Below are positions 1 through 27,284 of a stretch of DNA of 63,415 nucleotides, one piece after another. Both the position numbers and the translations under genes were made by a program. A model generated the notes under the pieces. It had not been told where the DNA came from. It ran no database searches and worked only from the letters and a program-made list of their open reading frames with translations. Positions within the stretch are counted from its first letter, which is position 1, and the number at the start of each line of letters is the position of its first letter. Source of the stretch: Candidatus Woesearchaeota archaeon (GTDB lineage: Archaea; Nanobdellota; Nanobdellia; Woesearchaeales; UBA583); assembly GCA_027858315.1 (NCBI GenBank), contig JAQICV010000041.1, positions 1-63,415 on the forward strand, in the 5' to 3' direction.

Positions 1-71
1 ATCTTATTTAATTCTTGACGAAAAGAATTCTCGTGAGGAATTATTTGTTTTTGTACAAGTTTACGAATCAT
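1..71 (-). CDS. partial CDS (first 23 codons; continues past the left window edge), hypothetical protein
   Basis: Minus-strand ATG at 71-69 with an open frame to position 1 (MIRKLVQKQIIPHENSFRQELNK...). Palindromic TATA-like 'atttataaag' at 94-103 lies 23-32 nt upstream, the usual spacing in this window. Confidence 0.35.
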   Translation of the reverse strand, partial: MIRKLVQKQIIPHENSFRQELNK

Positions 72-191
72 AATAATTAAAGAAATTTGAACTTTATAAA
101 TCTACTTCGGATAAAGCCTGATTACCAATCAAATTGTTCCGAATGAATGTAATCAATGGCTGAACTTATTATTCTTTGATTAAATAATAAA

Positions 192-200
192 ATATATAAA
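192..200 (+). promoter_or_regulatory. TATA box for gatB
   Basis: 'atatataaa' lies 22-30 nt upstream of the ATG at 222. Confidence 0.5.
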
Positions 201-221
201 CCTAAACTAATATTTTTTCTT

Positions 222-1613
222 ATGACTCAAGATATTATGATAGGATTGGAAGTCCACGCATATTTGAAAACAAAAGAAAAATTATTCTGTTCATGTAAAA
301 AATCTTCAAAAGAAGATGAAGTAAATACTAATATTTGTCCAAGATGTACTGGTCAGCCTGGTGCTAAACCTAAATTACCAAATAAAGAGGCATTATACAA
401 AACAATTAAATTAGGTCAAATCTTTGGCTCAAAAATTACTCTTAGAACAAATTTTCAAAGAAAACAATATACTTGGCCTGATATGCCTGTAGGTTATCAA
501 AGAACTGTTTCAGGAAACATAACTCCAACTGGAGTTGGTGGTGAATTTCAAGGTATTGGAATTGAAGAACTACATTTAGAAGAGGACCCAGCAGCATGGG
601 ACCCAGTAACTGGTGAGATTAATTATAATAGAGCTGGTTCTCCTCTGGCAGAAATTGTAACAAAACCTGAATTTACTTCAACAGACCAACTAAGAGAATG
701 GTTAAAAGAATTAATCCTTGTAGCTTCCTACATTGATGCAATAGATCCAAATTTTAATATAAAATCAGATGTTAATGTTTCAATTAAGGAATCTGGTTTC
801 AAAAGAGTTGAAATCAAAAATGTAAATTCATTCACAAACATTGTTGCATCAGCTGAAGCTGAGATTAAAAGACAAAGAGCTTTAGTTGCAAATGGTGAAA
901 GTATTGAAATGCAAACTAGAAGGTACAATGAAACTCTTGATGAAACTCAATTTATGCGTTCAAAAGAAAATGCTCAAGACTATATGTTTATTCCAGAACC
1001 AGACTTACCTAACTTAATTTTAACTCAAAAAGAAATTGATAAAATTAAAAAGGAAATTCCTGAACTTCCTGCTCAAAAGAGGGATAAATATTCAGGATTT
1101 GGTCTAAAACTTGAAGACATAGAAGTATTAGTTTCAAATAGATATTTAACTGAAATATTTGAACATGCTCTTAAAGAAAAACTAAACCCTAAAGAAGTAG
1201 GATTATTTTTAAGAAGGGAGATTATGAGAGTATTGAACTATAATAAAGCAACATTTAAAGATTTAGAAAGAAAAGATATTAAATCAGAAATTTCAAAGCT
1301 TCTAGAACTCTTATCTTCAGAAAAAATTTCATATACAACTGCTCAAAAATTAATTGAAAAATTGTATGCAGAAAAATTCAACATAGAAAAATTTGTTGAA
1401 GAAAATAATTTAATTCAAGTACAAGATGATTCATTAATAGAGGATTTACTAAAAAAAGCCCTAAGTGAAGCGCCAAAAGCGGTAGAAGATTATAAAGCAG
1501 GCAATACTAAATCTTTAAACTTTGTAGTTGGCATCGTAATGCGTGAGACAAAGGGAACTGCATCCCCTCAAAAAGTAAATCAAGTTTTAATGAAATTAGT
1601 AAAGAATTTATAA
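222..1613 (+). CDS. gatB: Asp-tRNA(Asn)/Glu-tRNA(Gln) amidotransferase subunit B
   Basis: 463 aa. N-terminal 'IGLEVHAYL..CSC..CPRCTGQPGAKP' motif and a C-terminal GatB/YqeY-like tail (NFVVGIVMRETKGTASPQKV). Size fits GatB rather than the longer GatE. Confidence 0.85.
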   Translation: MTQDIMIGLEVHAYLKTKEKLFCSCKKSSKEDEVNTNICPRCTGQPGAKPKLPNKEALYKTIKLGQIFGSKITLRTNFQRKQYTWPDMPVGYQRTVSGNITPTGVGGEFQGIGIEELHLEEDPAAWDPVTGEINYNRAGSPLAEIVTKPEFTSTDQLREWLKELILVASYIDAIDPNFNIKSDVNVSIKESGFKRVEIKNVNSFTNIVASAEAEIKRQRALVANGESIEMQTRRYNETLDETQFMRSKENAQDYMFIPEPDLPNLILTQKEIDKIKKEIPELPAQKRDKYSGFGLKLEDIEVLVSNRYLTEIFEHALKEKLNPKEVGLFLRREIMRVLNYNKATFKDLERKDIKSEISKLLELLSSEKISYTTAQKLIEKLYAEKFNIEKFVEENNLIQVQDDSLIEDLLKKALSEAPKAVEDYKAGNTKSLNFVVGIVMRETKGTASPQKVNQVLMKLVKNL

Positions 1614-1640
1614 TTTTGTTGCTAGGCATAACAACTAATA

Positions 1641-1648
1641 TTTATAAA
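1641..1648 (+). promoter_or_regulatory. TATA box for the GGDEF gene
   Basis: 'tttataaa' lies 22-29 nt upstream of the ATG at 1670. Confidence 0.5.
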
Positions 1649-1669
1649 TGAAACTCTCAAATAAATATT

Positions 1670-2614
1670 ATGAGACTAAAAGACCATCTCGCATATAATT
1701 ATTATAAATATTCTTCCAGAGTTTTCAAAAGAAGTACACTTAAGTCTAAAATAAAAAAAGATTTAGTTTGGGGCTTCTTTTTGTCTTCTTTTTTAGGTTT
1801 TTTTGTATTTGTATCTCACAGTTTTATTATTGAGGCGCGTTCTATATGGGAGATTTTTATTGAGTCGTTAATTTATTTTTTTAATTTGATAATTATTTTG
1901 ATAGTTTTTGATTTTTATTTATATAATTCTATTAATAAAAATTTATTTGTTAGGTTTAAGAACATACAAGAAGAGATGAAAGAGATTATGAAAGGAAATT
2001 TATCTAAACGAATATCTAATGAAGGAGAAGATGAACTTGATGAGATGATTTACTTTACAAATGATTTATTAGATAAATTAGAACAACATATTGAAAATGA
2101 GAAAAAGTATTCATTAATTGATCCATTGACTAATTGTTATAATCGAAGAGCTTTAACTATAAATTCTGAATCTGTTTTGAGTTATTCTGATAGAGAGAAA
2201 AAGAACTTCACAATTGCAGTAATGGACTTAGACAATTTTAAAACAGTAAATGATACACATGGACATAAAGTAGGTGATGATGTATTGGTAACATTTAGCA
2301 AAGTTATTAAGGGAATTTTAAGGAAACATGATTCAGTATATAGGATAGGTGGAGAAGAATTCATGATATTACTCTCAGATATAAATGTCGCAGCTTCAAA
2401 AAAGATTTTGGAAAGATTAAGAAAGGATATTCCTTATCAAATTAAAAAACAAGTAGCTGAAATTAGTTGTAATGTTACATTTAGTTGTGGTTTTGTAAAT
2501 TCGAGGAAATATAATTTAAAGAATGAAGAAACAATTAATAAAATGATTGAGGATGCTGATGTTCTATCTTATAAAGCAAAAAAATCTGGAAAAGATAAAA
2601 TTGTATATCGTTAA
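1670..2614 (+). CDS. membrane-bound diguanylate cyclase (2 TM + HAMP-like linker + GGDEF domain)
   Basis: 'DPLTNCYNRRAL', 'VMDLDNFKTVNDTHGHKVGDDVL' and 'RIGGEEF' (GGEEF at nt 2348-2362). An RxxD I-site (RKHD, nt 2321-2332) sits exactly 5 residues upstream. Two N-terminal hydrophobic helices. Confidence 0.9.
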   Translation: MRLKDHLAYNYYKYSSRVFKRSTLKSKIKKDLVWGFFLSSFLGFFVFVSHSFIIEARSIWEIFIESLIYFFNLIIILIVFDFYLYNSINKNLFVRFKNIQEEMKEIMKGNLSKRISNEGEDELDEMIYFTNDLLDKLEQHIENEKKYSLIDPLTNCYNRRALTINSESVLSYSDREKKNFTIAVMDLDNFKTVNDTHGHKVGDDVLVTFSKVIKGILRKHDSVYRIGGEEFMILLSDINVAASKKILERLRKDIPYQIKKQVAEISCNVTFSCGFVNSRKYNLKNEETINKMIEDADVLSYKAKKSGKDKIVYR

Positions 2615-2616
2615 AA

Positions 2617-2832
2617 ATGTATAGTGTGATAAAATGTTTTAATTGTAAAAAATTCCAATTGAGCAGTGCAAATAAAATATTTACTTGTATTTATTGCAAA
2701 AAATCAAAAGAAATTACTCGAATAAGGATATATTATCAATCTCAAACGCCAAAATTAGCTCAAGAGGTTTTAAAAAAAATTAAAGAAGAACTAGCAGGCG
2801 AAGATTCAGGATTCAAATCTGCTTTAGAATAG
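2617..2832 (+). CDS. small zinc-ribbon protein (DUF1922-like)
   Basis: 71 aa with CxxC...CxxC (CFNCKK...CIYCKK). Starts 2 nt after the GGDEF stop, so probably co-transcribed. Confidence 0.5.
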   Translation: MYSVIKCFNCKKFQLSSANKIFTCIYCKKSKEITRIRIYYQSQTPKLAQEVLKKIKEELAGEDSGFKSALE

Positions 2833-2866
2833 TAATATTTATAAAATATTTAATTTATTAATTCTT

Positions 2867-3232
2867 ATGGCTGAAAACAAAAAAAGTAAAAATTTTTACA
2901 AATTCACAACTTATGTATTACTAATTGTAATTGTAGTAGCTATTGCATTTTATTCATTTGGAGTTCATTCAACAACAAAATTTAATGAAGGAGTAATTTA
3001 TGGACAACAATTAACTAGTGATTATGCAGTTCAAACTCTAAATCAAAATGGATATCTTCCTTTAACTCTTGGAAATCAAACTATTGCTTTAGTACCTTCG
3101 CAAATGTTACAAGTTGCAAAAGAAGAAACAATTCTGGAGATTTTAACTTATGTTCAAGAAAATGGATATGTTTCTTTATTTATTAATGAAACTGAAGTGG
3201 TCTTGGTACCATACCAAACACCTCAACAATAA
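2867..3232 (+). CDS. hypothetical membrane-anchored protein
   Basis: 121 aa; a single N-terminal TM (YVLLIVIVVAIAFYSF) followed by a soluble domain. Confidence 0.5.
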   Translation: MAENKKSKNFYKFTTYVLLIVIVVAIAFYSFGVHSTTKFNEGVIYGQQLTSDYAVQTLNQNGYLPLTLGNQTIALVPSQMLQVAKEETILEILTYVQENGYVSLFINETEVVLVPYQTPQQ

Positions 3233-3309
3233 TTAATAATTAATTTTTATTTATTTATTCCTTTGAATTCTCAATGGAATGACTATTATTATTGTTAAAT
3301 ATTAATTAT

Positions 3310-4062
3310 TTATTCTAAAAATAGTAATAAACTCATAATAAAAATTCCCAATATAAATGTAGTTATTTGTAAAATTGAACTTTTCAATTTGGATTCTTTA
3401 TGTAATTCAGGGATTAAATCTGAACCTGCTATATATATGAAATTTCCTGCAGCAACAGAGATTAAAAATTCTAGCGAACCATTTATTTTTGTTCCAATAA
3501 TTAATGCAATTATTAGCCCTAAAAATGCACTAAGTGAAGTAATAAAATTCATAGCAAGTGCTTTTTTTTGAGAAAATCCTCCATGAATCAAAACACCATA
3601 ATTTGCGATTTCTTGAGGAATCTCATGAAATATTACTGCAACTGTTGTAGCAATTCCTACAGGAATACTAACTAAATAACTAACCCCTATAATAATTCCA
3701 TCAATGAAGTTATGCATTGTATCACCAACTAAACTCATAATACTTAAAGGATGTACATGTTCTTTAGTAATTGGCATATGGCAATGTCTCCAATGAATTA
3801 TTTTTTCAAGAATTAATGAAATAATAATTCCGACCATTATATAAATTGAAATCTTCAATGTAAAACTTCCTGCTTCTTCTACTAATTCTGGCAGTAGATG
3901 TAAAAACACATCTCCAAATAAAGCTCCTGCAGAGAAACTTATCATATATATTAATGTCTTTTTTAATGTTTGAGTATTCATACCAAAAGTTAAAATTCCA
4001 ATTAATGAAAGAAAACTTACAATAAAAACGCTACCCAATGAATATAAAAATATATCAATCAT
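3310..4062 (-). CDS. ZIP-family divalent metal (zinc) transporter
   Basis: 250 aa, multi-TM. Has the 'HNFIDG' and 'FHEIPQEIANYGVL' signatures typical of ZupT/ZIP proteins. Confidence 0.85.
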   Translation of the reverse strand: MIDIFLYSLGSVFIVSFLSLIGILTFGMNTQTLKKTLIYMISFSAGALFGDVFLHLLPELVEEAGSFTLKISIYIMVGIIISLILEKIIHWRHCHMPITKEHVHPLSIMSLVGDTMHNFIDGIIIGVSYLVSIPVGIATTVAVIFHEIPQEIANYGVLIHGGFSQKKALAMNFITSLSAFLGLIIALIIGTKINGSLEFLISVAAGNFIYIAGSDLIPELHKESKLKSSILQITTFILGIFIMSLLLFLE

Positions 4063-4085
4063 AATTAATATGAGTTAATTTGTTT

Positions 4086-4667
4086 TTAAATAGTTATTCT
4101 TTTAGCATTAAATACTATATGAAATATTAAATTTATGACTATTGCAATCAAAATAATAAATATAAAACTATTAATAAAAAATTCGTAGGGAAACAAATAA
4201 TATGATAAATCATTAGGATTTAAAATCCATAACTCATTACTAAATAATAATGGGTGAAATATTTTGTCCCAGAAAAATATAAAAAAAGGAACAATTAAAA
4301 AACTAAGAATAAAGATTAGTGAATTAATAATTGGGTATTTCCCAATTTTTTTTCTATTAAACTTTATTATGAATATTATTAGGCTAACGATACTAAGTAG
4401 AAATAAAATGTCATAGATATTTCTAACTTCGCTAAAATGAACTTTTTCTTTATCATTCCAGTTTTCATTTAAGTCTTCTTTATGATAAAAATAATTAATT
4501 AAGTTTTTAGTTGAGTTCATTACAATTTCCTCACTAGTATAATTATATATTCTTTGTTTATCATAATTCAATTCATAAGAAGAACTAGAATATATTGTAT
4601 ATGTTAGTGGAACATATAAAGATAAATAAAAAAAGGATACAAACAATAGAAAGTTTTTTAATTTCAT
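4086..4667 (-). CDS. integral membrane protein (possibly TIGR01906/DUF1461-like)
   Basis: 193 aa: N-terminal TM, Tyr/Asn-rich loop, then three C-terminal TM helices. The family assignment is tentative. Confidence 0.4.
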   Translation of the reverse strand: MKLKNFLLFVSFFYLSLYVPLTYTIYSSSSYELNYDKQRIYNYTSEEIVMNSTKNLINYFYHKEDLNENWNDKEKVHFSEVRNIYDILFLLSIVSLIIFIIKFNRKKIGKYPIINSLIFILSFLIVPFFIFFWDKIFHPLLFSNELWILNPNDLSYYLFPYEFFINSFIFIILIAIVINLIFHIVFNAKRITI

Positions 4668-4715
4668 TAAAATTTATAGTTCTTATGTCTTTATAATTCT
4701 TCCCGAAATGGAAAG

Positions 4716-4724
4716 TTTTATAAA
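4716..4724 (+). promoter_or_regulatory. TATA box for the 5S rRNA
   Basis: 'ttttataaa' lies about 23-30 nt upstream of the predicted 5S 5' end. Confidence 0.5.
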
Positions 4725-4746
4725 CCGATTGACATTAATATTAGTA

Positions 4747-4858
4747 GAAGGTTCATATAGCCTAGGGTCACACCTGTTCCCATCTCGAACACAGAAGTTA
4801 AGCCTGGTTAGCCTTGGTGAGTACTGTTATATAACGGAAAAACTTTGGTGGCCTTCAC
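4747..4858 (+). rRNA. rrn5: 5S ribosomal RNA (stand-alone, not linked to 16S/23S)
   Basis: Conserved 5S core 'CCCATCTCGAACACAGAAGTTAAGCC' and 'GAGTACTG'. Terminal helix GAAGG(4747-4751)/CCTTC(4852-4856). Higher G+C than its flanks, and a T6 run follows. Confidence 0.9.
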
Positions 4859-4864
4859 TTTTTT
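4859..4864 (+). terminator. oligo-T terminator after the 5S rRNA
   Basis: 'tttttt' immediately 3' of the 5S terminal helix. Confidence 0.5.
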
Positions 4865-4991
4865 AATTAGTCTTATTCTCTAACTTTGAAAATTTAAATT
4901 GTAGTTTTTACTATTATATTCTGTATCGTTCTAAATAGTATTTTAAAAGCGTGTTACAAAGATTTATAAAATATTTATTTGTAAAATTATT

Positions 4992-5834
4992 ATGTTTAGA
5001 AGTAAAAAAGGAATTACTGCCGTTGTAAGTATAGTTTTTTTAATGTTGTTATCAATTACTGCATATATTTACCTTCAAAATTGGTATTTCAATATTGATT
5101 CAAATATTCAAAATGATGTATATACTAAAGAGGTTTCACAAAATTTAGAAGTAAGAAAAATTGAAGGTTCTCTTCTTACAATAAAAAATGATTTTGGTGA
5201 TGATTTTAAAATTAATTCAATTAAAATTGATGGGGTTGAATGTAACACTCAAGATTATATTATTGATGAGGGTATTGCAACTATAGATATTGGATCTTGT
5301 ACAAAAGGTTTAAATGAAGTAATTCCTTATTCAGTATCATTATTTACTAATTATGGTATGATTAATTCTTATGAAACTGTTAGAAGTCCACTAATATCTG
5401 ATTTGATAGTATTATTTCAATTTGGTGCTTGTGATTTTATAAATGGTTATACAAGGTTGTATGGATTAACTGATTTAGAGAGTGCTCATGTAGATGTTGA
5501 TGGTTCTAGTACTTATAATGTATGCGTAAAACATGTCGATTATAATCTTACCGATTCTGGTTATGTAAATAATGTAAATTTATTTTATTTATATCCTGAT
5601 TCTAATTCTGCAATTTGGACTCAAACAGGTTCAAGATATAGTGGAGAACCACCATTTTGGTATAATGTGTCTTTATCTTCTGATAAAACTATAAGTTATA
5701 TAATTAATAGTTCAAGTATGGCTGCTCAAAATTATAGTTGTATTGGGAAAATAGACGAAGATAATATTTATGGATCTCACATGGGCGATTGTTCATCATC
5801 GCATCCAGATACTTTGTGGGTTAAATTAATTTAA
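4992..5834 (+). CDS. archaeal type IV pilin-like protein (class III signal peptide)
   Basis: The N-terminus 'MFRSKKG|ITAVVSIVFLMLLSITAY' fits a prepilin-peptidase site ([KR]G followed by a hydrophobic helix). The rest is a Cys-containing extracellular domain with N-x-S/T sequons. Confidence 0.6.
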   Translation: MFRSKKGITAVVSIVFLMLLSITAYIYLQNWYFNIDSNIQNDVYTKEVSQNLEVRKIEGSLLTIKNDFGDDFKINSIKIDGVECNTQDYIIDEGIATIDIGSCTKGLNEVIPYSVSLFTNYGMINSYETVRSPLISDLIVLFQFGACDFINGYTRLYGLTDLESAHVDVDGSSTYNVCVKHVDYNLTDSGYVNNVNLFYLYPDSNSAIWTQTGSRYSGEPPFWYNVSLSSDKTISYIINSSSMAAQNYSCIGKIDEDNIYGSHMGDCSSSHPDTLWVKLI

Positions 5835-5947: not shown

Positions 5948-7234
5948 ATGGAGAATCTACTAGAAACTAATCCTATTTCTGAAAATACTAAAGATGATAT
6001 TGATAACTTCTTTGACGAATTTATGTCATCAAAACCTATTTTTAAAGATAAATCTGTATTACAGTCAAGTTACAAGCCAGATCTAATTCCTCATAGGGAA
6101 GAATACATAAAAGATATTGCGAAAATTTTAGCACCAGCATTAAGAAAGGAAAAACCTTCAAATCTTTTCATATATGGTAAAACTGGAACTGGAAAATCTT
6201 TATGTATAAATCATGTTCTAAATAAAATGAGTAATGTGGCTTCATCAAGAGATATTCCTCTTCTGATAGTTACTATAAATTGTAAACTAAAGAAAGTAGC
6301 AGATACTGAATACAGAATTCTTCTTGAAATTATTAAACAATTAGGAAAGGAAATGCCATCTACAGGAATTTCTACAAATGATTTATACAAAGAACTATAC
6401 ATTTTATTAGACTCACAAAGAAGAACTGTTTTATTAGTCTTAGATGAGATAGACACTCTAATTCATAAAGTAGGTGATGAAATATTATACAACCTAACAA
6501 GAATTAATCCTGAACTTAAAAATTCTGAAATTTCAATACTTGGAATTACAAATGATCTAACAGTAATGGACACAGTAGATGCAAGAGTTAAAAGTTCTCT
6601 AAATGAAGAAGAATTAGTATTTTTACCATACAATGCTGTTCAGATTCAAGATATATTAAATGATAGGTCATTAATGGCATTTCAAGCAGGAGTTTTACAC
6701 GAAGAAGTTATTCCTAGATGCGCTGCATATGCTGCAAGAGAACATGGTGATGCAAGAAGAGCTCTCGAACTTTTAAGATTTGCAGCAGAAATTGCAGAAA
6801 GAGAAGGCTCTGAAAAAGTATTACCTGAACATATTGACAATGCAGATAAGCGTTCTGAGAGAAATAGAGTAATTGATGTAATCAAATCTCAACCAAAACA
6901 ATTTCAATTGGTAAACTATGCAATAATTAAAACATCTATGAAAGAAAAGCACAATCTTGTAACAAATAAAAAATCTATGTTTTTTGAACCATCAACAACT
7001 GGAGCAGTATATGATTATTATAATAAAATAGCAAAAGAATTAAGTGTGCCATCTTTAAGTTTAAGAAGGATTTCAGACATTATTGTTGAACTTGAAGTAC
7101 TAGGTTTGATTAATTTTAAAATCGTCTCAAAAGGAAGATATGGAAGAACAAGATTTATCTCTGTAGATTTACCTAAGAGTTTATATGATGATGTTTTAAC
7201 CATATTAAAAGAAGATTTAAACATTACAATTTAA
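5948..7234 (+). CDS. cdc6: Orc1/Cdc6 replication initiator
   Basis: Walker A 'GKTGTGKS', Walker B 'LVLDEID', sensor region 'HGDARRALELLR' and a C-terminal winged helix. Start moved to M31 of the track ORF on TATA spacing. Confidence 0.9.
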   Translation: MENLLETNPISENTKDDIDNFFDEFMSSKPIFKDKSVLQSSYKPDLIPHREEYIKDIAKILAPALRKEKPSNLFIYGKTGTGKSLCINHVLNKMSNVASSRDIPLLIVTINCKLKKVADTEYRILLEIIKQLGKEMPSTGISTNDLYKELYILLDSQRRTVLLVLDEIDTLIHKVGDEILYNLTRINPELKNSEISILGITNDLTVMDTVDARVKSSLNEEELVFLPYNAVQIQDILNDRSLMAFQAGVLHEEVIPRCAAYAAREHGDARRALELLRFAAEIAEREGSEKVLPEHIDNADKRSERNRVIDVIKSQPKQFQLVNYAIIKTSMKEKHNLVTNKKSMFFEPSTTGAVYDYYNKIAKELSVPSLSLRRISDIIVELEVLGLINFKIVSKGRYGRTRFISVDLPKSLYDDVLTILKEDLNITI

Positions 7235-11907: not shown

Positions 11908-13143
11908 ATGCGAACTGATTATGCTGAATCAATTGATAGAAATTTGTCAAATAAAAGTAAATTTATTTTACCAAAACTAGCCTTATCTTCAATCTTACTA
12001 TTAGGTACTGCATTATTTAGTTATAATTCTGGGGTTAATTTTAGTAAAACTTCAATAGAAAATAAACAAAATAAAATTATCGAAAATTTTGTTGAAAATA
12101 CTGATAAAAATAATTTTAGTGGATTTAGTAATAGGATTAAAATTGATAATCTCGAAAGAAAATTGGAAGTTAAATCTACTAATGAGGAACTCAATGAGAA
12201 ATTAGATAGACTGCTAAAAGGAAAATATATAACTAAATTTGCTTATGACGATTTTTTTAAAAATGGTGATTCTAAAGCTTACGATTTATACAAAAATAAA
12301 AAAATTTCAGAATTTGCTTTAATTACATATTTGAGGGCAAATCCTGTTATTGATATATTAAATGAAAGTGAGGCAATCTTTCAAACTCCTGAATTTAAAG
12401 CAATAGTTGGTGCTGAATCTGATTTTTCACCTAACGCAAAATCCAATGCTGGTGCTATAGGGATGGCTCAAATGACTAAAGGTAAAAATGGTGGAATTGA
12501 AGGTTTACTCCATACTCGAAAAAGGGATAATGAAATTGTAAATAATATGTTAAATAAAGACAAAGTTAGTAAATTATCACTTGAAAATTATTTTGAGGAT
12601 TCAACTAAAATTAATTTAAATGATTTGGGATTAAATAAAGAAACACTTAAATCTTATGGTATAAGTGAAATAGAATTAAGTGAAGTAATAATTCCTAGGT
12701 ATTTGGCAATGAATGAAATAAACTTTGATAAATATACTTCAGAGAGTATAAAAAATAATATCAGATACAATATTTTGGCAGGAAATGCTCATTACTTCTC
12801 AGGAAAATTAGAATTAAGTATTCTGTCAACAGTAAAAAAAGAAAATCCTACTCGAGTTTTTTTTGAAGATGTTTCAAGATCTGAATTAGAAAAAAATTTA
12901 AACAATAGTGCTTTTCTTTGGAATTTAGATGAATTTTCTCAAGGTGCATACAATGCTGGAGTCAATGCCTTTAGGAATAAATATTTAAAACTTGCAAAAA
13001 AAGATTTATACGATACATTTAGGCTTGCATCTAATGAAACTAAAATTCACAGAACTAGAATAAATAAATATAAAGAAGCATTTAATGAACTTGAATCACA
13101 TAATGTATTTGATAGTGAAAATCTGTATGTTACTAAAAATTAA
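11908..13143 (+). CDS. membrane-anchored lytic transglycosylase (SLT domain) protein
   Basis: N-terminal TM. All three SLT family-1 motifs are present: 'AESDFS' (catalytic E-S), 'AIGMAQMT' (GLMQ-like) and 'AYNAGVNAF'. Confidence 0.8.
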   Translation: MRTDYAESIDRNLSNKSKFILPKLALSSILLLGTALFSYNSGVNFSKTSIENKQNKIIENFVENTDKNNFSGFSNRIKIDNLERKLEVKSTNEELNEKLDRLLKGKYITKFAYDDFFKNGDSKAYDLYKNKKISEFALITYLRANPVIDILNESEAIFQTPEFKAIVGAESDFSPNAKSNAGAIGMAQMTKGKNGGIEGLLHTRKRDNEIVNNMLNKDKVSKLSLENYFEDSTKINLNDLGLNKETLKSYGISEIELSEVIIPRYLAMNEINFDKYTSESIKNNIRYNILAGNAHYFSGKLELSILSTVKKENPTRVFFEDVSRSELEKNLNNSAFLWNLDEFSQGAYNAGVNAFRNKYLKLAKKDLYDTFRLASNETKIHRTRINKYKEAFNELESHNVFDSENLYVTKN

Positions 13144-13177: not shown

Positions 13178-13488
13178 ATTGGGGTATTATAAGCCACATT
13201 CTGTATTTCGTATTAGCAAAGACCTATAATGTCTTCAATCGAAATTTCAAGATTTGTCTAAGCGAGCATTCTGCTCTTGCACCAAGCTTTTTATCTCAAC
13301 TCTGCATTTACTCGAAGCTCATCTAACAATAAAAATGTAGAACATTTTTAAGCATGGTTAATAAATCAACCATAAATCATAGCTCATAAAACAAAGGGGG
13401 TTTCTGTAGTAGGCGATTTTCTCTCCTAAGCCATTTTAGTGGTGTGTGGACTTTCCTCTCCTTAAAGAGTCACTTGAAATATCCCAAT
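13178..13488 (-). ncRNA. rnpB: RNase P RNA
   Basis: On the minus strand: CR-I 'GAGGAAAGUCC' (rc of 13448-13458), an 'ACAGAAA' element, and CR-V 'ACAGAAUGUGGCUUAUAA' (rc of 13187-13204). P1 pairing AUUGGG(13488-13483)/CCCAAU(13183-13178). G+C is above the intergenic background. TATA at 13511-13519. Confidence 0.85.
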
Positions 13489-13524: not shown

Positions 13525-14100
13525 TTATTGCTTTTTATAAAGGTATAAACTAACTCCACCAAGTTCTTTACTTTTAAAATATTTTATTTCATCCATATAT
13601 GCATGCATAAATGATGTTCCAGTACCATTATTTATATCTGGTTTTATTTCTTCTGAAAAATTATACCAATTTAAAAAAGAGTTAGTTGAGTTTTTTTGTC
13701 TTTGTTCTAGTATAAATCTTGAAAATTTTGGATGTATTTTTTCACCTTGATCTGAGATTATGAATTCCAATTCTTTAGGTTTTATACTTGTACTAAGGAT
13801 AATTTTCTTATTTTCATCATACTTATTTCCATGTTGGAATGCATTTAGCAATCCTTCATATAATGTTGTAAAAATATTTGCACTATATCCTAGTTTTTCT
13901 ACATGTTCTGATATTGGTGTTATAATACTTCTAATTTGTCCAGGATATGTCTCTTTCTTAAGCGAAATTGGAGTTTTTTTAAAATATCGAGGTATTTGTA
14001 TTTCAGTTAATCTACTATCTTTCAAATTAATTTCTCTATCAATTAGACATTTCAAATATTCTGATCCAGTTAAAGAAAACATATCTTCCGTTTTGTTCAT
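13525..14100 (-). CDS. HATPase_c-type serine kinase-like protein (RsbW/SpoIIAB-like)
   Basis: N-box 'LYEGLLNAFQHGN', G1 'ISDQGEKI' and G2 'NGTGTSFM'. No histidine-kinase dimerisation (HisKA) domain. Confidence 0.65.
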   Translation of the reverse strand: MNKTEDMFSLTGSEYLKCLIDREINLKDSRLTEIQIPRYFKKTPISLKKETYPGQIRSIITPISEHVEKLGYSANIFTTLYEGLLNAFQHGNKYDENKKIILSTSIKPKELEFIISDQGEKIHPKFSRFILEQRQKNSTNSFLNWYNFSEEIKPDINNGTGTSFMHAYMDEIKYFKSKELGGVSLYLYKKQ

Positions 14101-15258: not shown

Positions 15259-16155
15259 ATGGTTTTATGGATTGCGTATGCACTTATTTCTGCTTTAACT
15301 ATAAGTATAAAAGATATTTTAGTAAAAAAAGTATTCAAAAATAAGAATACTTCTCCTTATCAAATAATATTTGAGGAATATTTTTTACTACTACTTATAG
15401 TGTTAATTTTATTTTCTCCAAAAGTAGATTTTAGTTCATACATACTTCATTGGCACTATTATTTGATAAAATCAGTAACTTTAGTTTTAGCAACTATTAT
15501 TTATTTTAAGCTTCTTCAAAAATATGAGGTTTCTTCAATTGTTCCTCTAATGAATCTAAGTCCTATGTTTTTACTTATACTATCAATTATCTTCTTGGGG
15601 GAGTTGATAAATCTTGTTCAATTTTTTGGAGTTATATTAATTATAATTTCAACTTATATTCTTGAAATAAATTTTCACAATCACAAAAAAAAAGATCCTA
15701 ATAAACATCACTTCGATTTTTTGAAGAAATTAAATTTGAAAGTAATATCTTCAGTTCTTATAATGTTAATTGTAATAAGTATGACTGCAATTGCTGATAA
15801 AAAAATTTTAAATGAAGTCAATGTTTACACAAACATGTATTTTACGGGCTTATTGATATTTGTAATGCTTTCTATTTATTATCTATCTCAAGGTCATTTA
15901 AAATTAGCATTTAAAGATATATTAACAGAGCCTTCAACATTAGTAATTTCTATATTTGCAATAATTTCTACATTTTTCATACTTTTAGCTATAGGTACTC
16001 CGGGTGCATTGGTTAGTTTAATAATTCCTCTTAAAAGAACTTCTACACTTTTCGCCTCAATTGGAGGAGGGATACTATTTCATGAAAAACATATGAAACG
16101 AAAATTATTTGCAACAATTGGCATGCTTTGTGGAGTTTTATTAATTGTATTTTAA
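15259..16155 (+). CDS. EamA/DMT-family transporter
   Basis: About 10 TM helices in two EamA-like halves. Start moved to the ATG at 15259 (MVLWIAYALISA), which removes the overlap with the divergent methyltransferase gene. Confidence 0.6.
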   Translation: MVLWIAYALISALTISIKDILVKKVFKNKNTSPYQIIFEEYFLLLLIVLILFSPKVDFSSYILHWHYYLIKSVTLVLATIIYFKLLQKYEVSSIVPLMNLSPMFLLILSIIFLGELINLVQFFGVILIIISTYILEINFHNHKKKDPNKHHFDFLKKLNLKVISSVLIMLIVISMTAIADKKILNEVNVYTNMYFTGLLIFVMLSIYYLSQGHLKLAFKDILTEPSTLVISIFAIISTFFILLAIGTPGALVSLIIPLKRTSTLFASIGGGILFHEKHMKRKLFATIGMLCGVLLIVF

Positions 16156-16214
16156 TGTTTCTATCTCTAGGAGGTAACTTATCTTTATAGTCTTTTTTAT
16201 TTGTATTTTAAAGA

Positions 16215-17420
16215 ATGGAGCAGATGATGTTAATTTTCTTGATACTTAGTGTATCTTTCTTATTCTCTAGATTTTTTATTTATTTTAATCTGCCAAAAGT
16301 TTTATCGCCTATATTTTTTGGAATATTTATAGGTTATTATAGAGATTATTTGGGTTTAATTAATCTTGATTCATTGGAATTTTTATCTGAATTAGGAATA
16401 ATCATGCTTTTGTTTTATATTGGTCTTGAATTGAACTTGAATAATGTTAAAAAGCAAGGAAACCAAACTATCTTTGTAGCAGTCTTTGGTTTTATTTTCA
16501 CATTTATTTTGGGTTTTATATTTTCACATATGATTATGTCTTATTCAATTAAGGTAAGTTTTGTTATTGCATCAGTTTTAAGTGTCACCGCAGAGAGTAT
16601 AGTAATTGTAATTCTAGAGCAAGCCAAATTACTTAAAAGTAAAATAGGTGAAGTCATTATTGGTGCAGGATTACTTGATGATATATTTGGCCTTTTTTTT
16701 CTTGCGATTATATCTATAATGGTAGCTGATAATTATAGTTTAATTTCTATGTTGCCTTTATTTCTAGGTGTATTGGTTGTTTTTATTGGATACTTTTTTA
16801 TAAAGAAAATTTCATATTTTATTGATAAAGTGTTTATGCAAGATAGTTTAAAATTATATGATATATTTACAATATCTATAATTTTTCTTTTATTTTTTGC
16901 TTTATTTTCATCTCTTATTGGTTTGGATTTTTCATTAGGTGCAATTTTATCAGGAATTTTATTAAATTTTTCATTAAGTAGGGAAGGTAAGAAAGGAGTT
17001 TTAGAAGAACATCAAATAAATTTATTTATCAAAAATATGACTTTTGGTTTCTTGTCATATTTCTTATTTTTTTGGATAGGATTTAATATTGATTTAACTC
17101 AATTCTTACAAAATCCAGTTTTAGGTTTTATTTTTGCAATAATTGCTTTTAATGGTAAATTCTTTGCAGGACTTTTTTCATCATATATTACTAAAAATAA
17201 TTTTTTCACAGGTTCATTAATAGGTGTAGGGATGACAACAAAAGGTGGAGTTGAATTAATTATACTTGAGATTGCAAGAAAGTCTGGTTTAATTAATGTA
17301 CAAATATTTTCTGCATTAGTTCTTATGAGCTTAATCTTGACTATTTTTTCGCCTATTATATTTAATATAATTGTGAAGAAATATAATAAAGGATTACTAT
17401 TAAAGACAGGAAATATTTAA
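16215..17420 (+). CDS. cation:proton antiporter (CPA2/Kef-like membrane domain)
   Basis: 401 aa, 11-12 TM helices, with 'GLELN' and 'GAGLLDDIFG' motifs typical of Na+/H+ exchanger-family proteins. Confidence 0.7.
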   Translation: MEQMMLIFLILSVSFLFSRFFIYFNLPKVLSPIFFGIFIGYYRDYLGLINLDSLEFLSELGIIMLLFYIGLELNLNNVKKQGNQTIFVAVFGFIFTFILGFIFSHMIMSYSIKVSFVIASVLSVTAESIVIVILEQAKLLKSKIGEVIIGAGLLDDIFGLFFLAIISIMVADNYSLISMLPLFLGVLVVFIGYFFIKKISYFIDKVFMQDSLKLYDIFTISIIFLLFFALFSSLIGLDFSLGAILSGILLNFSLSREGKKGVLEEHQINLFIKNMTFGFLSYFLFFWIGFNIDLTQFLQNPVLGFIFAIIAFNGKFFAGLFSSYITKNNFFTGSLIGVGMTTKGGVELIILEIARKSGLINVQIFSALVLMSLILTIFSPIIFNIIVKKYNKGLLLKTGNI

Positions 17421-17445
17421 AAACAATCATTTCTTGAAATATATT

Positions 17446-17913
17446 ATGACGCAGCAAGAACTCTCAAAGGAAGAGATTCAAAAGAGAATGGAATTGATGA
17501 AGGAAAATTGTATTTTCTGTAAAATTCAAAAAAAAGAAATTCCTTCAAAAATTATTTTTGAAGATGATATTTGTCTTGCAATTCTCGACATAAATCCTGC
17601 TACAATGGGACATTTACTTCTAATGCCTAAAGAGCACTATATGTTAATGCCAATGGTTCCAGATGAGATTTTAGGGCATTTATCTATCATCTCTAAATAT
17701 CTAGCAGACTTATTAAAAGAGACATTTAATCCAAATGATATTTCAATTTTTATTTCTAATGGTGCAGCTGCAGGCCAACAATCTCAACATTTCATGATGC
17801 ATGTAATTCCAAGGTATGAAAATGATGGACTTAATTTTGACTTATCAGGAAGTAGTCTTTCTTCAGAAGAATTAGAAAATCTTGCAATAAAATTAAGATC
17901 AAAATTGAATTAA
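17446..17913 (+). CDS. HIT-family protein with a degenerate histidine triad
   Basis: Hint-like 'CIFCKI' and 'NGAAAGQQSQHFMMHVIPR'. The triad reads H-F-M-M-H, i.e. the central His is Met. ATG at 17446 preferred over the TTG at 17434. Confidence 0.75.
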   Translation: MTQQELSKEEIQKRMELMKENCIFCKIQKKEIPSKIIFEDDICLAILDINPATMGHLLLMPKEHYMLMPMVPDEILGHLSIISKYLADLLKETFNPNDISIFISNGAAAGQQSQHFMMHVIPRYENDGLNFDLSGSSLSSEELENLAIKLRSKLN

Positions 17914-17991
17914 TTCTTATCGTGTCTAGTCAGAGTAGTAACTAACTATTATAAACGAGTTATTCAATAAATATCTTATATAATTATAAAA

Positions 17992-19830
17992 ATGGCTATG
18001 GTTAAAAAGGTTTTAATATTACTGATTGGGATTTTTGCACTGCTTAGCGTATCATACGCAACACAGGAGCAAATTCTAATTGAGTTAAATGAATTCGTAG
18101 ATCAGGAAGTTATCTACAATCCATTAAAGTTTGGCGGAACAGGCGTTGGTACTTGGTCTGATGCTAATGAGAATCAATCTTCATATTCTATTACTGGATA
18201 TGTTGTAGTATCAAATACAAATCCTAATGGAAAAACACTCTCGGATATATACATTTCATTAGATAATACTAATAATATGACTCTTCCGGTTTTACATCAA
18301 GGAAGAAATGGTACTTTTATTAGTAATAATCCTGCAAGTAATTTATTAGTTTTACATATTCCTGAGTTAATGACAGGAGAGAATAGTACTTGGGTTTATT
18401 CTGTAAACACTACAAGTATTAGACCTCCTTTAAATTTTACTTCAACATATTCAGATAGTAAAGTTTTAGCTGGTGATAATGTAACAATATATGATAGAGT
18501 TGAAAATGTATATGATAATGAAACTTATCAATTAAACACTTGTATTTATGGGATTAATGTATCTCAAACAACTGTGCCTGTTAATTTTTCAGGACTTATG
18601 CAAGATTATTTCTTTTTCCCTATTTCAACAGCAGGTTCTGATGCAACTAATGTAACTTATCCTGCAGCTTACGCAGATAAAACTCAACATTGGTCAGTTT
18701 TAGGTGGAGGCAATTCATGTTTGGATAAAGGTGCAAGTACTGATATTGAATACATAGTTTCAACTCCTTTAAATATTCCAAAGACAACAGATTATACAAT
18801 GCTTAATACAACACTAAAATATAATTTAAATAGTACAATATCTCATACTAGAGTTATAGATATTGTTGCTTTAAGTGAGGCATATTTGGATTTTGAGAAA
18901 AAAATTCTAAAACCTTCTCATCCAACACTTTATGGAAGTAATGTGACTTGGAATGTAACTGGCTATTTTGCAACTGATATTAATATATCTTATGTTTTAG
19001 AAGAAGTAACTTTATGGGTATCACAAAGAAATGTGAATGGTATTTATACTGACCCAAATACTGTAGATAATGATACTATTGCAACAACTGTTCCTTTAAC
19101 TGTAGAAACAAATCCTTTCGTTGTAGTAAATACGACATCCCCTTGGTCAAGTTCAAATTGGTTATTCAATTATTCCGATATTCCTTCTCCTATTGTTTGG
19201 ATGGATATTAATTTTTCAATTGATAATGATGGAACTCAACTAATTAATAGAAGTATTACTAAAAATGGTAGAGATATTTATATTAAAGAAATCTATTTAA
19301 TTATTGGTTATTGGTTAGAAATTAACAAAAATATTACTGCAATTTCAGATGATGAATATCATGTAAGAATCGATGTTCACAACAAAGGAAATCAAGTAAC
19401 TCCTGCAGATACAATTGTAACAATTTACGATTTCATTCCTGGAAATTATAATTTGACTGGTCCTTTTGTTTTTAGTAATTCGCCATGGTATACTACAGCA
19501 AATACTAGTAATAATATTTCTGGAATTTATAATGGTACACTTCATCAATGGGGTCTAGTTCCAACTGGAGTTGGAGGTTTAAATACTTCTTTTGCACAAG
19601 GTCCAGGAATTAGTGTTAATACTTCATGGAGTGCAGATTATAATGTTACAGGTATTGGAGATTACACTTTACTGGACATATTTATTACAGGTTTAGATCC
19701 TCAAAAAGTAGATGGTGCAGGTTCAACAAATACTGTAATTGTTACAGAAGTTATGGATAGACTAAAAAGTACTGAAGGAATATTTGCAGCAGTTGCAAGT
19801 GTTTTATTACTATTAGGTTTATTATTATAA
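17992..19830 (+). CDS. secreted, C-terminally anchored surface glycoprotein candidate (S-layer-like)
   Basis: Signal peptide 'LILLIGIFALLSVSYA', about 29 N-x-S/T sequons counted by eye, and a C-terminal hydrophobic anchor 'IFAAVASVLLLLGLLL'. Confidence 0.6.
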   Translation: MAMVKKVLILLIGIFALLSVSYATQEQILIELNEFVDQEVIYNPLKFGGTGVGTWSDANENQSSYSITGYVVVSNTNPNGKTLSDIYISLDNTNNMTLPVLHQGRNGTFISNNPASNLLVLHIPELMTGENSTWVYSVNTTSIRPPLNFTSTYSDSKVLAGDNVTIYDRVENVYDNETYQLNTCIYGINVSQTTVPVNFSGLMQDYFFFPISTAGSDATNVTYPAAYADKTQHWSVLGGGNSCLDKGASTDIEYIVSTPLNIPKTTDYTMLNTTLKYNLNSTISHTRVIDIVALSEAYLDFEKKILKPSHPTLYGSNVTWNVTGYFATDINISYVLEEVTLWVSQRNVNGIYTDPNTVDNDTIATTVPLTVETNPFVVVNTTSPWSSSNWLFNYSDIPSPIVWMDINFSIDNDGTQLINRSITKNGRDIYIKEIYLIIGYWLEINKNITAISDDEYHVRIDVHNKGNQVTPADTIVTIYDFIPGNYNLTGPFVFSNSPWYTTANTSNNISGIYNGTLHQWGLVPTGVGGLNTSFAQGPGISVNTSWSADYNVTGIGDYTLLDIFITGLDPQKVDGAGSTNTVIVTEVMDRLKSTEGIFAAVASVLLLLGLLL

Positions 19831-19861
19831 TTAAATACTTAAAATTATTTTTATATATAAG

Positions 19862-20611
19862 ATGCATTCGAAGAATAGATATTTAAAGTTTTTTTTAGCA
19901 TTCATAGTATTAGTTTTTTTATCTAATCTTGTTTATTCTAATGTTGAAGTTTTTTCAAATTACGATACTGTTGTAACAATTAATAGTGATAATTATATTG
20001 ATGTAAATAAAACTCTAACTCTAAAAAATGTTTATAGTGTAGGAATAGTTCCTGGACAAATTGAATTTAAAGTTGCAAAAGGAATTGATGGTAGTTTATC
20101 AAACATTGAAATTCAAAATGTTTCAGCAGTAGATCAATATGGGAAAGAAATTAAGACAAGAGTTAGAAATACTGACAAATACTCAGTGATTATAGTTGAT
20201 GTTTATTATCCTTTACTTCCTGGATTTGAATACAAATTTAACTTAAATTATCAATTAGGATATGATCCTGGTGGAATTTTTTTTAAGAGTTTACAAATAC
20301 CTTTAAGAGAAAGTACGATTCCTATTGAAAAAGGAGAATTTAAAGTAGTTCTTCCTGAGAATTATCATTTTACATATGTTGAAGAGAATACTGATACTAA
20401 AACTAGTATTGAGGGAAATAATGCTGTTTGGGAAATTAAAGATAATCTGCCTAATTCAATAGTATTTGAATATTCGTATCTTCCTATTTCAATAGGTTCA
20501 TTTAAAGGTTCATATATTTTTTGGATTACAATAAATATAATTTTACTGACTATATTATTTGTCGAAGTTAAAAGAGAAATTAAGAAGGTGAAAGGACAAA
20601 ATGATGTTTAG
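19862..20611 (+). CDS. secreted, C-terminally anchored protein
   Basis: Signal peptide 'FLAFIVLVFLSNLVYS' and a C-terminal TM 'IFWITINIILLTILFV' with a basic tail. Overlaps the next gene by 11 nt. Confidence 0.55.
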   Translation: MHSKNRYLKFFLAFIVLVFLSNLVYSNVEVFSNYDTVVTINSDNYIDVNKTLTLKNVYSVGIVPGQIEFKVAKGIDGSLSNIEIQNVSAVDQYGKEIKTRVRNTDKYSVIIVDVYYPLLPGFEYKFNLNYQLGYDPGGIFFKSLQIPLRESTIPIEKGEFKVVLPENYHFTYVEENTDTKTSIEGNNAVWEIKDNLPNSIVFEYSYLPISIGSFKGSYIFWITINIILLTILFVEVKREIKKVKGQNDV

Positions 20612-26579: not shown

Positions 26580-27284
26580 GTGGCTAAAATTACTAGGGAA
26601 AAATTTAAAGTATATTCAGGAGTATTTGATGAATTTACTTTAAATACATTAGAATTTCTGAAAAGAAAGAATTACTATGACAAATTTGGAAAACCTATTA
26701 AAACTGGAAAAGAAGGTGATGTCTATTCAGCAGTAAAAGGGGAAGAAATAAGAGCAATTAAAATTTACAGATTAACTAATGCTAATTTCAAAAAAATTTC
26801 TGAATACATCAATCGTGATTTCAGATTTAGAAACATTAAAGGTAATTTAAGAAAATCAATTTTAGTTTGGGTACAAAAAGAATATCGTAACCTTTCAATA
26901 TGTCATAAGGCTAACATGAATGTTCCTTATCCTTACAAACAATCGAATAATATAATTATTATGGAGTACATTGAAGGAGGAATGTTAAAAGATATTCCTC
27001 TTTCAAATCCTGAAGAATTTTTTGATTTATTAATTGAACAAATGTATATTATGAAACATGAAGCAAAACTAATTCATGGAGACCTTTCAGAATTTAATAT
27101 AATGGTGAAAGATGATTTGCCAGTAATTATTGATATGGGTCAAGCAATGACAATAAAAAATAATGATGATTTCAAAGAATTTTACGATTTATATGAAAGA
27201 GATGTTAAAAATGTTGTAAGATATTTTAACAAAAGATATTCTCTTAATGTATCTGAAGAAGAAACTTTTCAAAAACTTTTATGA
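26580..27284 (+). CDS. RIO-type serine protein kinase
   Basis: 'GKEGDVYSA' P-loop-like motif, 'IHGDLSEFNIM' catalytic loop and 'IIDMGQA'. GTG start is forced by an in-frame TAA immediately upstream. Confidence 0.85.
   Translation: MAKITREKFKVYSGVFDEFTLNTLEFLKRKNYYDKFGKPIKTGKEGDVYSAVKGEEIRAIKIYRLTNANFKKISEYINRDFRFRNIKGNLRKSILVWVQKEYRNLSICHKANMNVPYPYKQSNNIIIMEYIEGGMLKDIPLSNPEEFFDLLIEQMYIMKHEAKLIHGDLSEFNIMVKDDLPVIIDMGQAMTIKNNDDFKEFYDLYERDVKNVVRYFNKRYSLNVSEEETFQKLL

Follow-up and report, generated by a model that had tools for sequence, protein, structure and literature searches.

A probable archaeal diguanylate cyclase with an intact inhibitory site, usually paired with a small zinc-ribbon gene, in a Woesearchaeota lineage

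Diguanylate cyclases, the GGDEF-domain enzymes that form cyclic diguanosine monophosphate (c-di-GMP), are almost exclusively bacterial, and c-di-GMP has not been detected in any archaeon (2023 review, PMC10249747). Galperin et al. 2018 described a GGDEF protein of Methanocella arvoryzae (CAJ37382) and a receiver protein with a degenerate GGDEF domain, REC-(degenerate GGDEF), in 'Ca. Micrarchaeum acidiphilum', and questioned archaeal GGDEF genes as contamination (PMC5847659); Roemling 2022 stated that GGDEF proteins 'need to be confirmed in archaeal contigs' (PMC10086821). In a groundwater study, diguanylate cyclase genes were reported from pooled ultra-small metagenome-assembled genomes (MAGs), archaea and bacteria not being separated (PMC9938205). 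Here, we analysed a 63,415-nt stretch of DNA (contig JAQICV010000041.1, GC content 26.7%, zero Ns; hereafter the window), in which a gene at 1670-2614 on the plus strand encodes a predicted membrane-anchored GGDEF diguanylate cyclase of 314 residues. A preliminary description of this DNA had held c-di-GMP signalling to be essentially bacterial, and the literature agrees, as archaeal GGDEF proteins are treated as nearly absent (PMC10086821, PMC5847659, PMC10249747). The window gene and the clade of its relatives resemble the Methanocella and Micrarchaeum cases in being encoded in archaeal genomes or MAGs, and such GGDEFs are regarded as rare bacterial imports; compared by description, those cases are isolated, one is inactivated and their authenticity has been questioned, whereas the clade reported here keeps its active and inhibitory sites and recurs among archaeal genes in many assemblies. 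In the literature search, no account of a Woesearchaeota or Nanoarchaeota GGDEF family came up, and none of a GGDEF/DUF5817 pairing.

We consider it likely that the gene encodes a genuine archaeal diguanylate cyclase that is catalytically competent and product-inhibited, that was acquired once, and that is usually paired with a zinc-ribbon protein and has an HD-GYP-type partner. The GGDEF catalytic domain occupies residues 149-309 (2114-2596, plus strand), as determined with Pfam PF00990 (E=3.2e-36, 125 bits vs a cut-off of 23.8), and the generic NCBIfam GGDEF model TIGR00254 scored 133.7 bits against a cut-off of 37.4. The sequence matches in the PDB comprised 48 diguanylate cyclases, with 6zxm at the top (9.8e-23), and the top partial alignments to NCBIfam equivalogs were those of PleD, SiaD and DgcN/YfiN. 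The metal and substrate motif DLDNFKTVND lies at residues 186-195 (2225-2254, plus strand), followed by HGHKVGD at residues 197-203 (2258-2278, plus strand), by the RxxD inhibitory site (I-site) RKHD at R218-D221 (2321-2332, plus strand), by the five residues SVYRI, and by the active-site motif GGEEF at G227-F231 (2348-2362, plus strand). The preliminary description had proposed an intact GGDEF domain with an I-site and with these two substrate motifs, and had called for a search with a GGDEF hidden Markov model (HMM); the Pfam scores, the fold match described below and the spacing of RKHD, five residues before GGEEF, bear it out on each count. Its RIGGEEF motif is also present, but the interval 2348-2362 that it gave covers GGEEF only, the full RIGGEEF being 2342-2362.

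The fold was examined on an AlphaFold2 (AF2) model, for which a 54-sequence alignment including bacterial diguanylate cyclases was used as input. The model (mean predicted local distance difference test score, pLDDT, 94; predicted template modelling score, pTM, 0.74) consists of helices 24-54 and 59-107, a loop 108-121, a helix 122-148 and then the GGDEF alpha/beta fold. Foldseek placed it on the experimentally active diguanylate cyclases SiaD, DgcB, PleD, IsPadC, DgcR, WspR, DosC and SadC, and superposition on isolated GGDEF domains gave target-normalised TM-scores of 0.84-0.91. By every criterion of sequence and modelled structure tested, the protein is thus assigned to the GGDEF diguanylate cyclase family.

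Upstream of the catalytic domain, hydropathy indicated two transmembrane (TM) helices at residues ~31-56 and ~58-88 (1760-1933, plus strand), in line with both the AF2 helices and the two TM helices of the preliminary description. The loop between them has only a few residues, and no extracytoplasmic sensor domain lies there. Because these two TM segments follow a positive-inside N-terminus with 10 Lys/Arg in residues 1-31, both termini and the catalytic domain are predicted to be cytoplasmic. A HAMP-like helix-loop-helix or signalling-helix linker spans residues ~89-148 (1934-2113, plus strand) and showed weak similarity to histidine kinases in their TM2-HAMP regions. The gene runs from an ATG start to a TAA stop, and a TATA-like box (TTTATAAA, 1641-1648, plus strand) is located 29 nt before the ATG, which would be a putative archaeal promoter with a short or leaderless 5′ end.

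Among characterised enzymes, the cyclase most resembles, from its sequence, the bacterial TM-HAMP-GGDEF enzymes of the YfiN type. YfiN/DgcN (TpbB) has the same order of TM, TM, HAMP-type linker and GGDEF domain with GGEEF and an RxxD I-site, its NCBIfam model aligns to residues 57-304 (E=6e-36), and the TpbB GGDEF structure 7a7e was matched with a target-normalised TM-score of 0.80. YfiN differs in having a periplasmic PAS-like sensor between the TM helices and control by YfiR, neither of which the archaeal cyclase has; the cyclase reached 124 bits against the 325 bits of the YfiN/DgcN equivalog NF007423, and it is paired with an archaeal zinc ribbon, whereas yfiN is paired with yfiR/yfiB in bacteria. 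PleD, WspR and DgcB share with the cyclase the fold and the catalytic and inhibitory residues (DgcB 6ttr, a coiled coil and GGDEF domain with c-di-GMP, target-normalised TM-score 0.88; PleD 2wb4/2v0n and WspR 3i5b also matched), and in PleD, too, RxxD stands exactly five residues before the active-site motif. The input of PleD-type enzymes is a receiver domain, whereas that of the archaeal cyclase is the membrane and HAMP-like module, and the equivalent of PleD R446 is a Lys in the window protein, as in 99 of the 326 bacterial domains compared. The best Foldseek match was SiaD of Pseudomonas aeruginosa (7e6g, E=2.4e-16). SiaD with SiaC provides a precedent for a diguanylate cyclase controlled by a small protein encoded in its own gene cluster. 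SiaC belongs neither to the zinc ribbons nor to the relatives of DUF5817, and its likeness to the zinc ribbon described below would be one of functional analogy only.

Relatives of the cyclase form a clade that appears rare but diversified. A search of 5.8 billion proteins returned eight close relatives (36-48% identical, 302-313 residues, 195-312 bits), below which the matches fell to ≤117 bits and to ordinary bacterial GGDEF proteins. With a profile, ~18 clusters were found at 273-457 bits before a drop to ~155 bits, and an HMM search covering all of 1.84 billion representatives yielded ~17 full-length clusters, against 424,240 GGDEF proteins at E≤1e-10. P0253 and P0252 (~155 bits) were considered as distant clade members and rejected, since the context of P0253, the first protein checked below the gap in scores, is bacterial (GroEL, Lgt, ExbD, OmpR); this gap was therefore taken as the clade boundary. 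The genomic context was retrieved for ten distinct clade members, on contigs designated by L numbers. These contigs are AT-rich (20-31% GC), and the longer ones bear archaeal genes: Cdc6, eL21, L37e, LSM, PriS and Rpb4 on L004, S27e, FEN1 and MCM on L088/L089, and PriS, a Holliday-junction resolvase and a KH/PNO1-like protein on L001/L002. The longer contigs L090 and L092 carry aCPSF1, ScpB and FtsZ, and aRF1, respectively.

Although the clade members are overall only ~36-48% identical, the residues D186, D188, K191, N194, D195, H199, D203, R218, D221, R225, GG(E/D)EF and K304 are invariant in 9/9 and in 25/25 members. D186, N194, D203 and K304, which are also invariant in the 54-sequence alignment with bacterial diguanylate cyclases, we take to be the equivalents of PleD D327, N335, D344 and K442 (metal Asp, guanine-specifying Asn and Asp, and phosphate Lys), and the other invariant residues presumably bind metal, GTP or the inhibitory product as in PleD-type enzymes. 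In a neighbour-joining tree of 351 GGDEF domains, the 25 clade domains formed one group in 74 of 100 bootstraps, nested among bacterial GGDEFs and without a resolved sister, which supplies the phylogeny with bacterial homologues that had been called for earlier. The closest bacterial GGDEF domains found (L157 213-686 and L188 6979-7452, on contigs of 40-46% GC) are 44.5% identical over the domain and read 'CYNRRAL' in the N-terminal GGDEF motif, a variant that the archaeal clade also has; they could indicate the donor lineage. The motif is not specific to the clade, because the pattern 'LTxCYNRRAL' retrieved 120 metagenome loci, 97 of them with a GGDEF-domain hit, and the best-scoring ones had 40-70% GC and matched over the domain only. 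When species-representative genomes were scanned with universal GGDEF motif patterns, all 80 loci among the matches listed were bacterial, with ≤38% identity. The simplest history would be a single acquisition from Bacteria by the ancestor of an archaeal sub-lineage, then vertical descent under purifying selection on the residues of both catalysis and feedback inhibition, and the cyclase would accordingly be old within the lineage and not a recent import. The preliminary description had left two alternatives, horizontal acquisition or a different use of the fold: the first is favoured by the monophyly of the clade within bacterial GGDEFs, and no residue points to the second.

The second gene of the locus begins 2 nt after the cyclase stop codon, as had been described previously. 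It encodes a protein of 71 residues (2617-2832, plus strand) with a four-Cys zinc ribbon and a helix, similar to DUF5817, the MRNIP N-terminal domain and DUF1922. A homologous small zinc-ribbon open reading frame (ORF) lies directly 3′ of the cyclase and on the same strand in seven of the ten clade members, and the two genes are 2 nt apart or overlap in several of them. In six of six family sequences the Cys residues of CxxC...CxxC are invariant, followed by a conserved C-terminal helix with the consensus 'vLKKIKEE'. DUF5817 matched five of the six partners (best 3.9e-9; the window protein reached 23.5 bits vs a threshold of 31), the MRNIP N-terminal ribbon matched all six, and the profile of the six matched MTH1184/DUF1922 of Methanothermobacter (1gh9) over the full length, though weakly (E=0.021). 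MTH1184/DUF1922 and DUF5817 have the same arrangement, a four-Cys ribbon then a helix in ~70-90 residues, and the partner is therefore classed, on sequence, as an archaeal-type small zinc ribbon. To our knowledge, neither of these uncharacterised families has been linked to GGDEF proteins or nucleotide signalling. A search with the family profile detected no second copy either in the window or in the clade loci (63 kb and ~125 kb, ~190 kb in total), and a metagenome scan with a four-member alignment matched at least 600 stretches, none of which was confirmed. The single-sequence AF2 model has three strands and a helix with a pLDDT of only 70, and Foldseek of this model returned nothing below E=0.33. 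The weak, non-significant hits of the model (2617-2829) include the IscU Fe-S scaffold (E 0.5-2, ~35 residues, 1.4-1.6 Å), a curious match beside the SUF linkage described below, which does not count as evidence.

Further genes recur around the pair. The cyclase lies inside or beside genes for SUF Fe-S assembly in five of the ten members (L001 7713-11175, L005 296-3437, L007 3355-7595, L088 6836-10913 and L004 7666-10942), in the order SufB, SufD, GGDEF and then SufS or the zinc ribbon, with overlapping stop and start codons in L007. The 63-kb window itself contains no suf genes, and the linkage may be either ancestral synteny or a functional link to Fe-S/redox. This linkage, the conserved pairing with the zinc ribbon and the age of the cyclase within its lineage are all absent from the preliminary description. 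The small membrane protein orf121 (2867-3232, plus strand), which has a TATA-like box of its own and no Pfam or NCBIfam hit, has homologues within a few kb of the GGDEF gene in L004, L005 and L007. The pilin-like orf280 (4992-5834, plus strand), which starts with a class III signal peptide of the archaeal, type IV pilin-like kind cut between KKG and ITAVVSIVFLMLL, is likewise without a match in Pfam or NCBIfam; its homologues in L005 and L007 (39-43% identical) adjoin SufC and lie near the cyclase, and L004 has another close to the cyclase. In L001, a MAG contig from NCBI, a type IV pilus-like cluster (15873-19721, minus strand) lies ~5 kb downstream from the GGDEF/zinc-ribbon pair and carries two T2SSF genes and a T2SSE ATPase of 664 residues, for which an MshEN-type N-terminal domain was not recorded.

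A candidate for degradation of c-di-GMP was found on the same contig, 44 kb from the cyclase. The gene at 46722-47321 (plus strand) encodes a stand-alone protein of 199 residues, with native codon usage, that matched Pfam HD_5 (PF13487) with 43.5 bits vs a cut-off of 27.2 and HD with 5.6e-14. Its top PDB match was the c-di-GMP phosphodiesterase PmGH of Persephonella marina (4mcw, 7.5e-20), then V-cGAP3 and PA4781. All metal-ligand motifs of PmGH and DxxDA..R.YK align with the candidate, which retains ETxxH, HDIGK, KNH, HHE and DVYDAL..R.YK (the DxxDA motif). It differs from PmGH-type proteins in having no receiver or sensor domain and in reading HHEYDEFQSYP at the signature HHExxDGxGYP, with Ser for Gly and the DG lost, and because of this SYP and the missing DG we speak of an HD-GYP-type candidate and not of a confirmed member. 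It is a likely c-di-GMP-degrading partner, with which the cyclase would form at least a pair for synthesis and degradation. The locus was also considered as a defence module and this was rejected, PADLOC models matching none of the cyclase, the zinc ribbon and orf121; the HD protein gave only weak generic hits to the HD domains of Cas3/Cas10.

The observations so far concern the domain, fold and motifs of the cyclase, their conservation, synteny and monophyly, together with the native composition examined below; from these, enzymatic activity, a c-di-GMP product, feedback inhibition, signalling through a dimer, and the roles of the zinc ribbon and the HD-GYP-type candidate are inferred by analogy, with the cyclase mechanism following what is established for enzymes of the PleD, WspR, DgcB and YfiN types. 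The two TM helices would anchor the cyclase and, because there is nearly no external loop, the signal would probably originate inside the membrane or be supplied by a cytoplasmic partner. The protein is expected to form a homodimer through its TM, HAMP-like and signalling helices, and the signal would pass through the HAMP-like/coiled-coil linker, changing the helix register so that the two cytoplasmic GGDEF domains, each with GTP and Mg2+, meet and form c-di-GMP. Binding of c-di-GMP to the RxxD I-site would then switch the cyclase off and limit its own synthesis, and the HD-GYP-type enzyme would degrade the product. As a candidate regulator of the cyclase, in the manner of SiaC and SiaD, or as a candidate effector that binds its product, the zinc ribbon ranks first. 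The SUF and pilin-like neighbours give hints only, and might point to Fe-S/redox as input and surface attachment as output.

Several points weigh against this reading of a native, working and partnered cyclase. The zinc ribbon is missing in three of the ten members (L005/6, L007 and L216), and because these lack the adjacent gene, the cyclase would not strictly need it; where the ribbon appears as a conserved partner, the adjacency could be inherited synteny. Beyond the incomplete GYP signature, no homologue of the HD-GYP-type candidate occurs in the flanks of the other clade loci (~10 kb per side covered), and HD-GYP relatives can act also on cyclic GMP-AMP (cGAMP) or other substrates. The window ORFs scanned contained no PilZ, EAL or MshEN domain and no second or degenerate GGDEF/EAL, and Rfam found no c-di-GMP riboswitch (GEMM) in the 63 kb even at E≤1. 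The HAMP match (PF00672) at residues 95-126 is sub-threshold (20.3 vs 25 bits, E=7e-4), for which the word 'HAMP-like' in the preliminary description was apt. The bootstrap value for monophyly (74%) is moderate and comes from a neighbour-joining tree only, in which the bacterial donor is not resolved. Bacterial gene acquisition is common in DPANN archaea, which makes a further case less remarkable, and all of the evidence derives from MAG and metagenome sequence.

A first alternative, which we regard as a possible but less favoured account, is that the cyclase works and the zinc ribbon is functionally unrelated to it, the pairing and the SUF, orf121 and pilin-like neighbours being leftover ancestral synteny. 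The three members without a ribbon downstream of the cyclase fit this account, as does the breadth of the archaeal DUF5817/DUF1922/MRNIP-N superfamily, which exists without GGDEF genes (as inferred from the archaeal membership of the Pfam families); the ribbon has no recognisable c-di-GMP-binding motif, and since a single lineage holds all members, shared ancestry would suffice. However, the pair is kept in at least seven surroundings (gatB, SufBD, PPDK/aCPSF1, aRF1/SPOUT, enolase, EamA/MCM and the Cdc6 side) while the rest of the neighbourhood differs from member to member; its genes are on the same strand in all and 2 nt apart or overlapping in several, and the ribbon family was found nowhere else in the ~190 kb examined. 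These points speak against the synteny account.

Extending the partnership further, it is conceivable, though we rate it as unlikely, that a DPANN sub-lineage runs a self-contained c-di-GMP circuit of cyclase and HD-GYP-type hydrolase, read by the co-transcribed DUF5817/DUF1922-like ribbon as a new receptor or regulator. If so, an archaeal-type four-Cys zinc or iron ribbon would be a previously unknown effector class within the first c-di-GMP system in Archaea, and the circuit might couple Fe-S/redox status, through the ancestral SUF linkage, or membrane stress to type-IV-pilus host attachment.

The nature of the product was weighed next to this. The cGAMP synthases known as Hypr-GGDEF enzymes carry Ser at the base-specifying position, as reportedly described by Hallberg and colleagues in 2016, and a Hypr identity was rejected, since this position, D203, is Asp in 25 of 25 members; this favours GTP and c-di-GMP over cGAMP. 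It is improbable, more broadly, that a real archaeal gene encodes a GGDEF protein used for something other than c-di-GMP signalling, such as the synthesis of another nucleotide (cGAMP, a pGpG-like compound or another cyclic dinucleotide), the sensing of GTP or c-di-GMP, or the making of c-di-GMP for export. Such uses would accord with the lack of a canonical receptor or riboswitch in the 63 kb, with the second-best solved relative of the HD-GYP-type candidate being a cGAMP-specific enzyme (5z7c), and with the lack of any detection of c-di-GMP in archaea (PMC10249747). An exported signal to bacterial neighbours or hosts would suit DPANN archaea, which live attached to other cells, and a contig with other bacterial-type, bacteria-directed genes, such as that of an SLT lytic transglycosylase domain protein. 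Against these uses, all residues for GTP binding, catalysis and c-di-GMP feedback are invariant across the clade, the specificity position is Asp as in canonical diguanylate cyclases and not the Ser of Hypr enzymes, the kept I-site implies an intracellular product at inhibitory levels, and the GGDEF domain is cytoplasmic by topology. We therefore keep to the reading of a c-di-GMP-forming, product-inhibited enzyme.

Whether the gene is native to its contig was assessed from composition and from an independent assembly. The cyclase has ordinary codon usage for the window (synonymous log-likelihood z = -0.66 vs window genes) and base composition (GC z = -0.57, GC content at third codon positions z = +1.1), and the tetranucleotide profiles of 3-kb segments over 1-5 kb correlated with the whole contig at r 0.976-0.991, the mean being 0.974. 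TATA-like elements 5′ of the window genes concentrate in the -30 to -26 bin (20 hits, vs 2-5 in each other bin), and the box of the cyclase, at -29, falls in this modal bin. The preliminary description had claimed a TATA spacing and codon usage like those of the neighbours and had called for a tetranucleotide check across 1-5000, and neither showed a deviation; its placement of the gene between gatB and a ZIP transporter gene was right as to both flanks, but two small ORFs, the zinc ribbon and orf121, separate the cyclase from ZIP. L004, a contig from an unrelated sequencing run, carries the gene set of the window on a single contig with the order rearranged: GatB is 80% identical, Cdc6 82%, eL21 85%, Zip 70% and PriS 62%, the GGDEF protein 48%, the zinc ribbon 52% and orf121 41%, and a homologue of Lit is present and adjoins Zip there too. 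Because the L004 GGDEF is 48% identical vs 80-85% for GatB, Cdc6 and eL21, the cyclase appears to evolve faster than housekeeping genes while remaining intact. The same gene set on an independent contig argues strongly against chimerism or contamination, of which the sequence of the window bears no sign. A bacterial GGDEF gene misjoined to an archaeal contig in assembly or binning can thus hardly be credited, even though the cyclase is only 1.7 kb from the 5′ end of the window, GGDEF is overwhelmingly bacterial (the 424,240 hits above) and Galperin et al. 2018 (PMC5847659) caution about bacterial contamination of archaeal contigs, as the flanking genes on both sides have orthologues beside the GGDEF orthologue on L004, at least nine further assemblies put clade members among archaeal genes, and codon usage, GC, tetranucleotide signature and promoter spacing are indistinguishable from those of the neighbours.

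The locus and its relatives confirm, at the level of sequence, genuinely archaeal GGDEF genes, because the archaeal synteny recurs, the composition is host-adapted, and selection has kept the active and inhibitory sites. Two members of the clade already bear the label 'diguanylate cyclase (GGDEF)-like protein' from the JGI pipeline, so the annotation pre-exists, and the biology had not previously been examined. What is new is that a predicted enzyme of canonical type turns up in a domain of life where it was not expected, and does so as a conserved family, specific to one lineage, that has an archaeal zinc ribbon as its partner. The long-standing negative that Archaea lack c-di-GMP signalling now becomes a directly testable case, for which three small expressible proteins are on offer (the cytoplasmic part of the cyclase, the zinc ribbon and the HD-GYP-type candidate), and the question of what reads c-di-GMP out in Archaea without a PilZ-type receptor is open to test. 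The locus would also be a clean example of a bacterial signalling enzyme joined with an archaeal small protein in a reduced-genome symbiont.

The remainder of the contig is of archaeal character, as had been claimed from Cdc6, PolD, PriS, eL21 and eL15, all of which were found (the PolD protein as a PolD-like one). Proteins related to its uL3, at 69-74% identity, carry the names 'Nanoarchaeota archaeon' or 'Candidatus Woesearchaeota archaeon' in their sources, and on this ground the host is placed in the Woesearchaeota/Nanoarchaeota group of DPANN archaea. The replication markers are Cdc6/Orc1 (5948-7234, Pfam), PriS and a PolD-small-subunit-like protein (DNA_pol_E_B/Metallophos), and further markers are eL21, eL15, eS8, Rpb4/RpoF, DUF655 and SUI1, together with a ribosomal protein cluster from uL3 to uL29. 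A full-length match to archaeal RNase P RNA at 13181-13485 (minus strand; Rfam 58.8 bits, E=7.9e-14, below the gathering score of 84) is probably a divergent DPANN RNase P RNA. The 5S rRNA gene (4745-4859, plus strand) lies by itself, flanked by the Lit-like gene and the pilin-like ORF; neither a 16S nor a 23S gene is close to it, and the rRNA genes of the host appear unlinked.

Bacterial-type genes on the contig encode a homologue of the lipoprotein intramolecular transacylase Lit (4086-4667, minus strand), the SLT lytic transglycosylase domain protein (11908-13143, plus strand), an RsbW-like HATPase_c_2 protein (13525-14100, minus strand), a DUF924 protein (52071-52619, minus strand) and a cold-shock domain protein (52985-53200, plus strand); given these, the cyclase would be one among many apparent bacterial imports. 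A suspected truncated RIO kinase at 26916-27284 was rejected, the gene being intact with a GTG start at 26580. A pair of DUF2853 paralogues is encoded at 42043-42531 (plus strand) and 56948-57301 (minus strand), with 14 kb between them. Three successive large secreted or surface proteins without annotation, one of them with a DUF11 repeat (17992-22301, plus strand), and a subtilase of 1,626 residues (31885-36765, plus strand) are also encoded in the window, a set such as DPANN episymbionts typically carry as cell-surface armament.

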